A stretch of 64,000 nt of DNA, taken from the sequence record MZ956761.1. The stretch is one strand, 5' to 3'. Source of the stretch: a phage. Under the pieces are notes generated by a model. It saw nothing but the letters and a program-made list of their open reading frames with translations, ran no database searches and had not been told where the DNA came from. Position 1 is the first letter of the stretch, and each line of letters opens with the position of its first letter. The translations under genes and the position numbers were made by a program. Below are positions 29,912-34,639 of this stretch, piece by piece.

Positions 29912-30223
29912 ATGGTTTATGTATATGCGATAGTTTACCGAGACAAAGACGGATTTACGGCGCCAGTTCCGCTTGATGAACATCGTCCTGCTGTATTTTT
30001 TGAATGGAAGATTGCTGATAAAGTATTTACCACTCTTAAAGAGCAGTATCAACTAGCTTTAGGTAAGGGAATTCCAAGATTAGTTGAGACTCCACGCAAG
30101 TTTTGGTTTAATAAAATAGAAGTTAAACATGTTAAGCCTGACGTAGACACGCAAAGATTATATCAGCGAATTTTAGATACTGGGCGTATTGTTAGTATAC
30201 CAATTGCAGGGAATTTACGATGA
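29912..30223 (+). CDS. hypothetical protein (dda.1 position)
   Basis: 103 aa ORF, ATGA overlap with dda. Confidence 0.5.
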   Translation: MVYVYAIVYRDKDGFTAPVPLDEHRPAVFFEWKIADKVFTTLKEQYQLALGKGIPRLVETPRKFWFNKIEVKHVKPDVDTQRLYQRILDTGRIVSIPIAGNLR

Positions 30224-31539
30224 CATTTGATGATTTGACCGAAGGCCAGAAAAATGCCTTTAACATTGTTATGAAGGCTATTAAAGAAAAGAAACACCAT
30301 GTAACTATTAATGGACCTGCCGGTACCGGTAAGACTACTCTTACTAAGTTCATCATTGAAGCCTTAATATCTACGGGCGAAACTGGCATTATTTTAGCAG
30401 CTCCTACTCATGCAGCTAAAAAGATTCTTTCAAAACTGTCAGGGAAAGAAGCGAGTACTATTCACAGTATTCTCAAAATTAACCCGGTAACATATGAAGA
30501 AAACGTTCTTTTTGAACAAAAAGAAGTACCGGATTTAGCTAAATGCAGAGTATTAATCTGCGACGAAGTGTCAATGTATGATAGAAAGCTATTCAAAATT
30601 CTGCTTTCAACTATCCCGCCGTGGTGTACTATAATTGGAATAGGCGATAATAAGCAAATTAGACCTGTTGACCCAGGAGAAAACACCGCTTATATCAGTC
30701 CGTTCTTTACACATAAAGATTTTTATCAGTGTGAACTCACTGAAGTTAAACGCAGTAATGCTCCTATTATTGATGTAGCTACTGATGTTCGCAACGGTAA
30801 GTGGATTTATGATAAAGTTGTTGACGGGCATGGAGTACGTGGATTTACTGGTGATACCGCTTTACGCGATTTTATGGTAAATTATTTTTCAATTGTAAAA
30901 TCACTAGATGATTTGTTTGAAAATCGCGTAATGGCATTTACGAATAAATCTGTCGACAAGTTAAATAGCATTATTCGCAAAAAGATTTTTGAAACTGATA
31001 AAGATTTTATCGTTGGCGAAATTATTGTAATGCAGGAACCATTAATTAAAACATATAAAATTGACGGAAAGCCTGTGTCAGAAATTATTTTTAATAACGG
31101 ACAATTAGTTCGTATTATAGAAGCAGAGTATACATCAACATTTGTTAAAGCTCGCGGTGTTTCTGGAGAATATCTAATTCGTCATTGGGATTTAACAGTA
31201 GAAACTTACGGCGATGATGAATATTATCGTGAAAAGATTAAAATAATTTCATCTGATGAAGAGCTGTATAAGTTTAACTTATTTTTAGGTAAAACAGCAG
31301 AAACTTATAAAAATTGGAATAAAGGTGGAAAAGCTCCGTGGAGTGATTTTTGGGATGCTAAATCACAGTTTAGTAAAGTGAAAGCACTTCCTGCATCAAC
31401 ATTCCACAAAGCTCAGGGCATGTCTGTAGACCGTGCTTTCATCTATACGCCTTGTATTCATTATGCAGACGCTGAATTGGCTCAGCAGCTTCTTTATGTT
31501 GGTGTCACTCGTGGTCGTTATGATGTGTTTTATGTGTGA
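30220..31539 (+). CDS. dda: Dda DNA helicase (SF1)
   Basis: 439 aa; Walker A GPAGTGKTT; T4 synteny. Confidence 0.92.
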   Translation: MTFDDLTEGQKNAFNIVMKAIKEKKHHVTINGPAGTGKTTLTKFIIEALISTGETGIILAAPTHAAKKILSKLSGKEASTIHSILKINPVTYEENVLFEQKEVPDLAKCRVLICDEVSMYDRKLFKILLSTIPPWCTIIGIGDNKQIRPVDPGENTAYISPFFTHKDFYQCELTEVKRSNAPIIDVATDVRNGKWIYDKVVDGHGVRGFTGDTALRDFMVNYFSIVKSLDDLFENRVMAFTNKSVDKLNSIIRKKIFETDKDFIVGEIIVMQEPLIKTYKIDGKPVSEIIFNNGQLVRIIEAEYTSTFVKARGVSGEYLIRHWDLTVETYGDDEYYREKIKIISSDEELYKFNLFLGKTAETYKNWNKGGKAPWSDFWDAKSQFSKVKALPASTFHKAQGMSVDRAFIYTPCIHYADAELAQQLLYVGVTRGRYDVFYV

Positions 31540-31545
31540 GGATAT

Positions 31546-31806
31546 ATGATTAACATCAATTCAAAATATTTAAATCGTCTAATAGATGGTATAAAGAAGC
31601 ATACTAATAAGCAAGATAACCTCAGTGTTATGGTAACAGGAGCTGAGCTCCTTTATAAGCTTAATCTTATAAGTGATACTATACTAGCAATTAAACGAAT
31701 TGAAAAACAATCATATCACAGTAATACAGATACGGTAATTACATTAGATGAAAGTGTCTGTAAGCTGCTGATTAAATTTGAGGAAGCTATTCGTGGAAAT
31801 AACTAA
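31546..31806 (+). CDS. hypothetical protein
   Basis: 86 aa ORF. Confidence 0.45.
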   Translation: MININSKYLNRLIDGIKKHTNKQDNLSVMVTGAELLYKLNLISDTILAIKRIEKQSYHSNTDTVITLDESVCKLLIKFEEAIRGNN

Positions 31807-32038
31807 AGACCAGTTTTATCTGCTTCAAGATAAAGTGAGCGAAATTTATGAAATAGCTTATAGTAAAAATCGCAAAAACGTGAAAATTGAATCAGGCAAG
31901 TTAATGCTTCAATTGGAAGAAATTGAACGAGATTTGATTGCATTAGAATTCTTTTGCGGCGAAGTGAAAACTGTTACAATCAGTGATTATGTTTTAGGTG
32001 AAATTAGCCATCTTTATAAGGCGGTTATTAATGATTGA
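31793..32038 (+). CDS. hypothetical protein, member of a tandem paralog pair
   Basis: about 81 aa from GTG 31793; C-terminus VTISDYVLGEISHLYKAV resembles next ORF. Confidence 0.45.
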   Translation: MEITKDQFYLLQDKVSEIYEIAYSKNRKNVKIESGKLMLQLEEIERDLIALEFFCGEVKTVTISDYVLGEISHLYKAVIND

Positions 32039-32273
32039 ATTAAGTTTGCATCAGTTTAAATCTCTTATGACAAATGTTAAAGCTGTCATTCAAGAAAATC
32101 CAGGACCTGATAATGTTACTATTCGTGAAAAAGCTTTAAAGATAGTATACAGTCTTGAAGAGATGCAAAAAGATATTGAATCTATGGCAAAATTTATTGA
32201 TGAGCCCATTAATAAAGTTTATATCCAAGATTATACTGTAGGTCAAATTCGCGATTTAGCGAGGAAAGTTTAA
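32031..32273 (+). CDS. hypothetical protein, member of a tandem paralog pair
   Basis: 80 aa from ATG 32031; C-terminus VYIQDYTVGQIRDLARKV. Confidence 0.45.
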   Translation: MIELSLHQFKSLMTNVKAVIQENPGPDNVTIREKALKIVYSLEEMQKDIESMAKFIDEPINKVYIQDYTVGQIRDLARKV

Positions 32274-32956
32274 TGTTTGATTTTATTATAGATTTTGAAA
32301 CAATGGGAAGCGGTGAAAAGGCAGCTGTTATTGATTTGGCTGTTATTGCCTTTGACCCTAATCCAGAAGTAGTTGAAACATTTGATGAATTAGTTTCACG
32401 TGGCATTAAAATCAAGTTTGATTTAAAAAGCCAAAAAGGACATCGTCTTTTTACTAAAAGCACTATCGAATGGTGGAAAAATCAATCTCCTGAAGCTCGA
32501 AAAAATATTGCACCATCAGATGAAGATGTAAGCACTATCGATGGTATTGCAAAATTTAATGATTACATCAATGCGCATAATATCGATCCTTGGAAATCTC
32601 AAGGCTGGTGCCGTGGAATGTCGTTTGATTTTCCAATTTTAGTCGATCTCATTCGCGATATTCAACGTCTTAACGGCGTTTCCGAGAATGAGCTTGATAC
32701 ATTTAAGTTAGAACCTTGTAAATTTTGGAATCAGCGCGATATTCGTACCAGAATTGAAGCACTTCTGCTTGTTCGTGATATGACCACATGCCCTCTTCCA
32801 AAAGGAACCTTAGATGGATTTGTTGCGCATGATTCTATTCATGACTGTGCGAAAGACATCCTGATGATGAAGTATGCTTTGCGATATGCTATGGGTCTTG
32901 AAGATGCTCCGTCAGAGGAAGAATGCGATCCTCTATCTCTTCCAACAAAACGATAA
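32273..32956 (+). CDS. dexA: exonuclease A DexA
   Basis: 227 aa; DEDD-type 3'-5' exonuclease motifs; T4 synteny. Confidence 0.85.
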   Translation: MFDFIIDFETMGSGEKAAVIDLAVIAFDPNPEVVETFDELVSRGIKIKFDLKSQKGHRLFTKSTIEWWKNQSPEARKNIAPSDEDVSTIDGIAKFNDYINAHNIDPWKSQGWCRGMSFDFPILVDLIRDIQRLNGVSENELDTFKLEPCKFWNQRDIRTRIEALLLVRDMTTCPLPKGTLDGFVAHDSIHDCAKDILMMKYALRYAMGLEDAPSEEECDPLSLPTKR

Positions 32957-33525: not shown

Positions 33526-34065
33526 ATGAAATTTAATTATAATCCTGAGTACATACCAAATCCGGTAGCTAAACTGATTGATTTTGATGTTGTAAGCACT
33601 TATGTATGCCCTGTTAAACCACTGGAAATTAAGGAAACTACTATGACTACCGCTATTGAAATCGGCAAAACCTACAAACTGGTTGAAACTGAAATTAAAA
33701 CTACTGAACTAGATTTGGGTTATAAAGCATTGACCAGTGTTTTTGGTGAAGGCGAGTTTGTGGTTAAAAGTTTTTCAAAAAGTAATTGGTATGATAAGAA
33801 TAAAGCTTACGTGATTCGAGCACATCGCTTAGATAATGATGAAGTAATTAAAACTATGGCCTTTGAAGCAGAGCTTATCCTCTTCAAAGAAGTTGATCCT
33901 ACTGACCTTTTGACTCATGCAGTAGCTATTAAGACCCCATTTATTTCGGTCTGTGGTTGGGTAACAGACCAATGGATTGAAGATGGTGTTGAACTTCTGA
34001 ACGTTGTTCATGCAGGTGATTTTAGCGTAGTACCTCGTAGTGCAGTGGTAGCTATTTTGAATTAA
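33526..34065 (+). CDS. hypothetical protein, paralog of 34142-34639
   Basis: 179 aa; shares C-terminal domain (TDQWIEDGVELLN...) with downstream ORF. Confidence 0.55.
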   Translation: MKFNYNPEYIPNPVAKLIDFDVVSTYVCPVKPLEIKETTMTTAIEIGKTYKLVETEIKTTELDLGYKALTSVFGEGEFVVKSFSKSNWYDKNKAYVIRAHRLDNDEVIKTMAFEAELILFKEVDPTDLLTHAVAIKTPFISVCGWVTDQWIEDGVELLNVVHAGDFSVVPRSAVVAILN

Positions 34066-34141: not shown

Positions 34142-34639
34142 ATGATTATTAATATTGGTGAATTAGCTCGTGTATCTGATAAATCCCGCTCTAAAGCAGC
34201 AGGAAAATTGGTCGAAATTGTAAGCATTCAGCTTAAACACGGCGTTAAAGATGAAGATTCTGAAGTAAAAGTGCGTATCATTCCTAAAGATGGAAAGTCT
34301 AAACCTCAGTTTGGTTATGTTCGCGCGAAATTTCTTGAATCTGCATTTTTGAAAGCTGTTCCCGCTAAAGGAATTGAAACGATTGATACTTCGCATGTAG
34401 GTGTAGACTTTAAGTGGAAACTCGGTCAAGCTATCAAGTTCGTTGCTCCTTATGAATTCGAATTTACTGAAGATGAGGAAGGGGTTGTTCAAAAACACCG
34501 TACTCGCGCTATGTGTGCATACATTACTGATCAATGGGTAGAAGATGGCGTTAAGTTATACAACGCGGTATTTTTAGGAACATACAAAGTCATTCCTGAA
34601 AGTTGGATTAAACACTACAGCAAAGCTCGCTATGCATAA
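34142..34639 (+). CDS. hypothetical protein, paralog of 33526-34065 (possible MotB-family)
   Basis: 165 aa; position between dexA and cef/39. Confidence 0.5.
   Translation: MIINIGELARVSDKSRSKAAGKLVEIVSIQLKHGVKDEDSEVKVRIIPKDGKSKPQFGYVRAKFLESAFLKAVPAKGIETIDTSHVGVDFKWKLGQAIKFVAPYEFEFTEDEEGVVQKHRTRAMCAYITDQWVEDGVKLYNAVFLGTYKVIPESWIKHYSKARYA

Follow-up and report, generated by a model that had tools for sequence, protein, structure and literature searches.

The locus between the helicase gene dda and the exonuclease gene dexA raises the question of whether the three small ORFs lodged there belong to a single gene family, and, if they do, how the array came to its present state and what its products could do. 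The window is a stretch of 64,000 nucleotides of phage DNA (sequence record MZ956761.1), and a 1-kb query taken from the region has a 100% match in Escherichia phage ADUt (OQ466432.1, genus Tequatrovirus). On the + strand the genes follow one another in the order srd, dda.1, dda, ORF1, ORF2, ORF3 and dexA. Phage RB51 has the three small ORFs under the names RB14ncORF017c, dexA.2 and dexA.1, and the dda-dexA gap of T4, T2 and PP01 holds dexA.2 and dexA.1 only, without ORF1. ORF2 and ORF3 are dexA.2 and dexA.1, two genes long annotated in T4: their products are 90-91% identical to the T4 proteins (90% for dexA.2), and their position and overlaps are those found in T4. The first-pass annotation of this DNA did not recognise them under these names. 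In this respect the finding is real and largely ordinary. The features of the locus are as follows.

30220..31539, + strand: dda, DNA helicase, an ORF of 439 aa named DNA helicase or Dda in ADUt, RB51 and T4; upstream border of the array
31521..31558, + strand: predicted RNA hairpin spanning the dda stop and the ORF1 start (folding calculation)
31540..31771, + strand: ORF1 indel segment of 232 bp (DNA alignment), present in ADUt-type phages and missing from T4, PP01 and Pu-Krd-SF6
31546..31806, + strand: ORF1, 86 aa, ATG start; corresponds to RB14ncORF017c / RB51ORF017 (PHROG 4967)
31793..32038, + strand: dexA.2 (ORF2), 81 aa, GTG start, annotated dexA.2 in RB51 and T4; Shine-Dalgarno GAGGA at 31780-31784
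32028..32033, + strand: TTAATG, copy 1 of a 6-bp direct repeat flanking dexA.1 (sequence); the deletion junction of Pu-Krd-SF6 lies here
32031..32273, + strand: dexA.1 (ORF3), 80 aa, ATG start within the stop region of dexA.2; stop codon overlapping the ATG of dexA (TAATG)
32270..32275, + strand: TTAATG, copy 2 of the same direct repeat, 242 bp downstream of copy 1
32273..32956, + strand: dexA, 3'-5' exonuclease A; downstream border of the array

The overlapping starts and stops that had been noticed in the first reading of the sequence are confirmed: ORF1 and ORF2 share 14 nt, ORF2 and ORF3 share 8 nt (ATGATTGA), and ORF3 and dexA share 1 nt (TAATG). The explanation favoured here, to which a probability of about 0.8 is given as a whole, is that of a paralogous family which loses copies by deletions at gene junctions, is kept under purifying selection and encodes non-enzymatic, putative binding proteins. 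In brief, the three ORFs are diverged paralogues of one family of T4-like phage proteins of about 80 aa, located in the dda-dexA gap; the small genes would be expressed from the dda.1-dda operon transcript, with a translation that is probably coupled from one to the next and to dexA; and the proteins, in which neither a catalytic motif or domain nor any domain fusion is found, would be non-enzymatic and most likely act by stoichiometric binding to a partner, a protein or a nucleic acid, which may be either a host factor or a phage protein (DexA, Dda). On laboratory hosts the small genes would be dispensable.

The kinship of dexA.2 and dexA.1 is the most firmly established part of this explanation. 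Indeed, (i) the two proteins align end to end over 79 aa by BLASTP with 25% identity, 53% positives and E=1e-7, (ii) their Smith-Waterman score of 80 compares with 26.6 +/- 5.0 for shuffled sequences (z=10.6; none of 5000 shuffles scored as high), (iii) alignments of their respective orthologs match each other by hhalign with E=3.4e-6, and (iv) they share the central motif LEE(I/M)xxD(I/L), which reads LEEIERDL in one ORF and LEEMQKDI in the other, as well as C-termini (VTISDYVLGEISHLYKAV versus VYIQDYTVGQIRDLARKV) that follow the pattern (I/V)xDYxxGxIxxL. The similarity of these sequences is far above chance and the two genes are paralogues, as the first-pass annotation had proposed with correct coordinates and motifs. 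Their relationship is already on record, since both fall within one Pfam family (PF26837, precomputed on homologues of both) and one PHROG (1700, matched by dexA.2 with E=6e-50 and by dexA.1 with E=4e-42); the profile of PHROG 1700, with 160 columns, consists of dexA.2 and dexA.1 concatenated.

ORF1 had been put forward tentatively as a third, diverged member. Compared directly with dexA.2 and dexA.1, it shows no significant similarity, whether by BLASTP (E 0.39 or no alignment), by Smith-Waterman shuffles (z of -0.3 and 0.6) or by hhalign with shallow profiles (E 0.1-0.3). These shallow profiles had an effective sequence number of about 1, because the word-indexed search for homologues returned only relatives at least 86% identical. 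Its membership consequently rests on intermediate sequences and on predicted structure. First, PHROG 5263, a profile of 77 positions which probably corresponds to the single-copy gap proteins of other T4-like genera and is known here from profile matches alone, has full-length matches to all three proteins (1.1e-6 for ORF1, 4.3e-8 for dexA.2 and 3e-3 for dexA.1). Secondly, 80 loci around DexA homologues were fetched, the small ORFs were taken from each dda-dexA gap, and a profile was iterated from dexA.2 and dexA.1 as seeds, to which ORF1 was never admitted; under this ORF1-free profile the hmmsearch E-value of ORF1 went from 0.04 to about 2e-8 to 4e-8 (25-26 bits). As controls, ORF1 scored 25.2 bits against a maximum of 13.3 bits among 2000 composition-preserving shuffles, and the best of the 82 other small + strand ORFs of the window reached 8.7 bits. 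By hhalign against the family alignment without ORF1, residues 1-81 of ORF1 were aligned over 75 columns with a probability of 95% and E=3.6e-8. Thirdly, in pairwise comparison ORF1 comes closest to the protein that Escherichia phage VR20 has as its only copy in the gap, with 28% identity over 78 aa. ORF1 nevertheless stands outside the curated boundaries of the family, since its homologues carry no precomputed Pfam domain (no PF26837) and it is assigned to PHROG 4967 and not to PHROG 1700.

The structure predictions are consistent with these profile results. The AlphaFold model of DexA.1 (pLDDT 94.4, pTM 0.81) has a strand at residues 2-5, helices at 6-22 and 26-56, a strand at 62-65 and a helix at 67-79, and that of ORF1, built from ORF1 orthologs only (pLDDT 86.3, pTM 0.76), has a strand at 2-5, helices at 6-22 and 26-52, a strand at 64-67 and a helix at 69-84. 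The fold of the family is thus predicted to be strand-helix-helix-strand-helix, a three-helix bundle of about 80 residues closed by a two-stranded ribbon, and the element order common to both models supports the membership of ORF1. Among the predicted viral protein structures of BFVD, the DexA.1 and ORF1 models each match the relatives of the other; by Foldseek, the top matches of the ORF1 model after itself are small proteins of T4-like phages, those named being from CC31, Henu6 and fHe-Yen9-01 together with DexA.2 of phage BECP11 (TM 0.74-0.77). Generic three-helix bundles of the PDB, namely designed bundles, the CheA P1 domain and the myosin VI lever-arm extension, are also among the closest known systems. 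Compared with T4 DexA.2 and DexA.1, ORF1 is of the same length class and predicted topology, with significant profile similarity; it differs in being absent from T4, in its separate PHROG, in a 6-residue insertion after helix 2, and in being basic (pI 8.8), most family members being acidic (pI 4.3-5.3). Four lines of evidence agree (PHROG 5263, the ORF1-free profile, the VR20 match and the AlphaFold topology), and on the strength of profile and predicted-structure methods, pairwise comparison being non-significant, ORF1 belongs, as a third and diverged member, to the DexA.1/DexA.2 family. Formal alignment of the three proteins therefore separates the ORF2-ORF3 pair, which is significant outright, from ORF1, which is significant by deep profile only.

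By sequence searches the family is found in T4-like phages only. The full family profile was run over 89 loci, and all matches fall between dda and dexA, on the strand that carries these two genes. The number of copies in this gap varies from 0 to 3 across T4-like genomes: none in RB69-type phages, in which dda and dexA are 9 nt apart; one in JS98 and most genera sampled; two in T4, T2, PP01, Pectobacterium phage PM2, Yersinia phages TG1 and phiR1-RT and two further loci (L036 and L060); and three in ADUt-type Tequatroviruses. In the phage collection, 497 Tequatrovirus records carry dexA.2, 480 carry dexA.1 and 309 carry ORF1, and the complete three-gene arrangement is present in 307 of the 500 records that match the region at the DNA level. 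The single-copy proteins of JS98 (named 'DexA.1') and VR20 (Gaprivervirus) share locus, size and family profile with the ADUt array, with one copy as against three. The JS98 copy has 45% identity with dexA.1 and 34% with dexA.2, which identifies the dexA-proximal copy as the conserved ortholog; the copy adjoining dexA (dexA.1 type) is conserved, while those nearer dda (dexA.2 and ORF1) are more diverged. PM2, TG1, phiR1-RT, L036 and L060 likewise have tandem overlapping copies between dda and dexA, the dexA-proximal one being more conserved, and these arrays probably arose by independent duplications. In PM2, the proximal copy is 40% identical to the single copy of locus L017 and the distal copy 33% identical to it, a pattern of sequence identities that suggests repeated local duplications. 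Small ORFs of other gaps were rejected as members: the two of RB49 show no similarity by BLASTP, PHROG or hhalign, and those of L044 and L047 show none by hhalign, with one borderline case (L044_1981, E=0.0014, probability 18%).

The arrangement of the array suggests how it could be expressed. For each of the three small genes, the Shine-Dalgarno sequence falls within the 3' end of the gene before it, and a scan of the array for promoters and terminators gave nothing above background. For T4, one transcription start located ahead of dda.1 could account for middle-phase expression of the genes from dda.1 to dexA.1 (bioRxiv 10.1101/2024.04.04.588121). The hairpin predicted at the dda stop and ORF1 start has a folding energy of -12.5 kcal/mol (z=-2.6, with 3 of 200 shuffles folding as well), and it places the Shine-Dalgarno GAGG in its loop and the ORF1 AUG in its stem, so that translation of ORF1 could depend on ribosomes finishing dda. 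Judging from these sequence features, translational coupling of the small genes is plausible: the stop/start overlaps, the internal Shine-Dalgarno sequences and the hairpin all fit it. DexA.2 has been detected as a protein in T4-infected cells (PMC10097602).

Across ten Tequatrovirus loci, dN/dS is 0.105 for dexA.2, 0.17 for dexA.1 and 0.24 for ORF1 (from six pairs only), compared with 0.02 for dda and 0.008 for dexA. Values of 0.10-0.24 indicate that the small genes are real and under a purifying selection that is looser than on dda and dexA. At the resolution used, dN/dS gave no sign of diversifying selection in these ten loci.

Concerning function, searches of Pfam, NCBIfam, PADLOC (defence proteins) and PDB sequences returned sub-threshold noise only, and the PDB sequence and fold searches gave no enzyme, known-fold match or characterised inhibitor. 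A dexA.1+dexA.2 profile searched against 1.84 billion representative proteins gave 10 hits, none with a fusion to an informative domain: they comprise the dexA.1 and dexA.2 genes themselves, fragments, one G-to-A-converted artefact and one repeat protein. DNA binding of the ribbon-helix-helix or helix-turn-helix type was considered and rejected: in the models the N-terminal strand is predicted to pair within the chain with the second strand, the helices measure 17 and 31 residues, and a CI-like repressor is represented by a single weak PHROG match (E=0.0015), obtained with the JS98 protein only.

One reading of these data, unlikely but a serious candidate, is that the proteins serve host takeover or anti-defence, each copy binding and neutralising a different host factor or immune sensor, so that copy number would reflect an arms race. 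Several observations favour it: the 0-3 copies with presence/absence polymorphism in very close relatives (PP01 and RB51 being 98% and 94% identical to ADUt), the small size and acidic pI of most members, a constraint 5 to 30 times looser than on dda and dexA, and dispensability on a laboratory host, where knock-downs of T4 dexA.1 and dexA.2 are scored 'Not Fit' in CRISPRi-ART, that is, with no fitness cost (PMC11879866 supplement). Furthermore, the Cap2 enzyme of CBASS, an anti-phage defence system, was found to couple cGAS covalently to two T4 proteins, one of which is DexA.2, modified at lysine 5 (PMC10097602). However, Cap2 also conjugated many host proteins to cGAS in that work (PMC10097602), and the conjugation of DexA.2, which may simply reflect its abundance, is a lead and not functional evidence; in addition, dN/dS is well under 1 with no sign of diversifying selection at the resolution used, and the proteins resemble no characterised protein. 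None of the tests run supports the selection from host defences to which the first-pass annotation had pointed.

The differences in copy number between close relatives can be followed to the nucleotide. The ORF1 indel, by which T4, PP01 and Pu-Krd-SF6 differ from ADUt, is bounded over its 232 bp by a TGA/TGA microhomology (31537-31539 and 31769-31771). In T4-type phages the dda stop is followed immediately by the final 35 nt of ORF1 (31772-31806), which form the leader and start of dexA.2. These 35 nt encode the end of the third helix of ORF1, which aligns with the C-terminus of the family; this suggests that the leader in T4-type phages is what remains of ORF1 and that the two-copy state arose from a three-copy one, from which T4 probably descends. 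In Pu-Krd-SF6 dexA.1 is missing as well: a deletion of exactly 242 bp runs from one TTAATG repeat to the other, at the two gene junctions, and leaves a DexA.2 that ends in ...IINV, as it does in P0009 and P0029. Copies are removed, in these cases, by short-homology deletions at gene junctions. When flanks are compared with those of ADUt, the two-copy PP01 is 98% identical and the three-copy RB51 94%; the presence of ORF1 is uncoupled from flank similarity, and its polymorphism has therefore been shuffled by recombination or is recurrent.

Such shuffling is relevant to another account of the array, according to which no duplication took place in situ and recombination between co-infecting T4-like lineages stacked diverged alleles side by side, making the genes xenologues and not paralogues. 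This account is improbable, though not so much so as to be set aside lightly. It agrees with the lack of correspondence between ORF1 presence and flank similarity, and with the nearest relatives of the genes: ORF1 is closest to the single copy of VR20 and not to its own neighbours, and dexA.2 is nearer to the single copy of JS98 (34%) than to dexA.1 (25%). Identities of 25-34% are nevertheless too low to tell an old duplication from a transfer, and in PM2 the distal copy has its best matches in the single-copy loci L017 and L043, which are also closest to the PM2 proximal copy, as a local duplication would predict. Duplication in place, allele stacking and loss are inseparable with sequences so short and so diverged.

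It is rather doubtful that the proteins are accessory partners of DexA or Dda (modulator, inhibitor or adaptor) whose stoichiometry is set by co-translation with dexA. The constancy of the location speaks for such a role: all family members in the 89 loci sit between dda and dexA on the same strand, in T4, ADUt and JS98 the proximal copy has a stop that overlaps or adjoins the start of dexA, and the synteny holds wherever sequence detects the family, in phages of Escherichia, Yersinia and Pectobacterium and in other loci with a DexA at least 52% identical. Similar small proteins, several of them with adjacent accessions, occur in T4-like phages of Acinetobacter and Aeromonas, where they are known through structure search alone. 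Against this role, RB69-type phages have dda and dexA directly adjacent with no member, Pu-Krd-SF6-type phages lack the dexA-proximal copy, RB49-type phages have sequence-unrelated small ORFs at the same place, and T4-like genomes are so broadly collinear that synteny alone says little.

A more specific proposal, quite improbable as it stands, is that the family consists of counter-defence decoys or inhibitors, for example with DexA.2 acting as a lysine sink for the Cap2 conjugation of cGAS in CBASS and its paralogues directed at different systems. If this were true, the 0-3 copy polymorphism would track the immune repertoires of the hosts. Lastly, the possibility that ORF1 lies outside the family, or is no gene at all, and resembles the others through a helical composition rich in K, E, I and L can be dismissed as very improbable: it would account for the non-significant pairwise and shallow-profile comparisons and for the homologues without a precomputed Pfam match, but shuffles (at most 13.3 bits against 25.2) and the 82 other small ORFs of the AT-rich window (at most 8.7 bits) do not reproduce the similarity, hhalign gives 95% probability, a confident AlphaFold model made from ORF1's own sequences has the element order of DexA.1, and 309 phage records contain the gene at an identity of at least 90%, its dN/dS being 0.24.

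With the paralogous family as the preferred reading, what is new is the membership of ORF1, obtained by sensitive methods, the dexA.2/dexA.1 family being already known, and the consequences are modest. An optional ORF upstream of dexA.2 (RB14ncORF017c type), carried by about 60% of sequenced Tequatroviruses, joins DexA.1 and DexA.2, and the family extends to several other T4-like genera by sequence and possibly, by predicted structure, to the T4-like phages of Acinetobacter and Aeromonas. The locus is also a clean, small example of an accessory phage gene array in which overlapping stop/start junctions are the points where units the size of a gene are deleted. Should the proteins bind a component of host defence or regulate DexA or Dda, the natural series of 0, 1, 2 and 3 copies would be a ready experimental panel.

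A last observation concerns annotation, as two enzyme names are attached to the small genes without support in any search. The name 'exonuclease', given in ADUt and many other records, finds no backing: no nuclease domain or motif is found in Pfam, NCBIfam or PDB sequences, and the model is a helical bundle. It has most likely spread from the neighbouring dexA. 'Dextranase', the RefSeq name of dexA.2, finds none either, with no glycoside hydrolase match and a length of 81 aa that is far too short, and is most likely derived from the gene symbol 'dex'.

The name 'dextranase' is widespread for dexA.2 (together with dexA.1 at window 31793-32273) in many database records, and the name 'exonuclease' is attached to both dexA.2 and dexA.1 in ADUt, RefSeq and UniRef. 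In neither gene was a domain, motif or fold found that supports these names, and both names were probably taken from the gene symbol and the adjoining dexA gene. In Escherichia phage ime09 (JN202312.1), a single protein of 159 aa is annotated across the two genes (L090:1148-1627, coordinates within the locus). In this record, a 1-base deletion (GGTTATTAATG to GGTTTTAATG) brings dexA.2 into the dexA.1 frame, resulting in an in-frame fusion of the two domains. This joining in one protein accounts for the length of PHROG 1700, the cluster matched by DexA.2 and DexA.1, which spans 160 columns. The ime09 protein could be either a genuine fusion or a sequencing error.

At the junction between dda and ORF1, the first small gene of the array, the following structure is predicted:

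31521-31558: stable hairpin across the dda stop codon (-12.5 kcal/mol)

An equally stable folding was obtained in only 3 of 200 shuffles. The ORF1 start codon lies in the predicted stem and the Shine-Dalgarno sequence GAGG in the loop. No unusual RNA structure is predicted at the remaining three gene junctions of the dda-dexA array.

The next genes downstream, beyond dexA, are:

33526-34065: motB.1-like gene (179 aa)
34142-34639: motB-like gene (165 aa)

Their products share a conserved C-terminal block (32 aa, 50% identity, E=4e-11 by BLASTP), with the core TDQW(I/V)EDGV. The two genes are a further pair of tandem paralogues in the accessory region that contains the dexA.2/dexA.1 array. Two neighbouring genes are annotated 'MotB-like' in RB69.

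A 1.1-kb query from Escherichia phage VR20 (NC_028894.1, a Gaprivervirus), running from the end of dda through the small gene into the start of dexA, matched 46 places in 34 records, with two places in several Gaprivervirus records. The second place may reflect duplication of a segment to another site of these genomes.

Two further observations concern proteins from the representative library. The first (P0107, 81 aa) is a DexA.2 copy with substitutions throughout (E to K, D to N, V to I, A to T, C to Y and G to N), a pattern expected if every G were replaced by A; it looks like an assembly from bisulfite-converted or otherwise deaminated reads rather than a natural variant. The second (P0110, 352 aa) is a repeat protein, in which a unit of about 48 aa, comprising ...ADYIAGELT..QICKKYNI... 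and resembling a helix-turn-helix, occurs at least six times. Positions 55-72 of the DexA family profile (DYxxGxI segment) are matched six times in this protein (total E=2e-4), which is probably the coincidence of a short motif.
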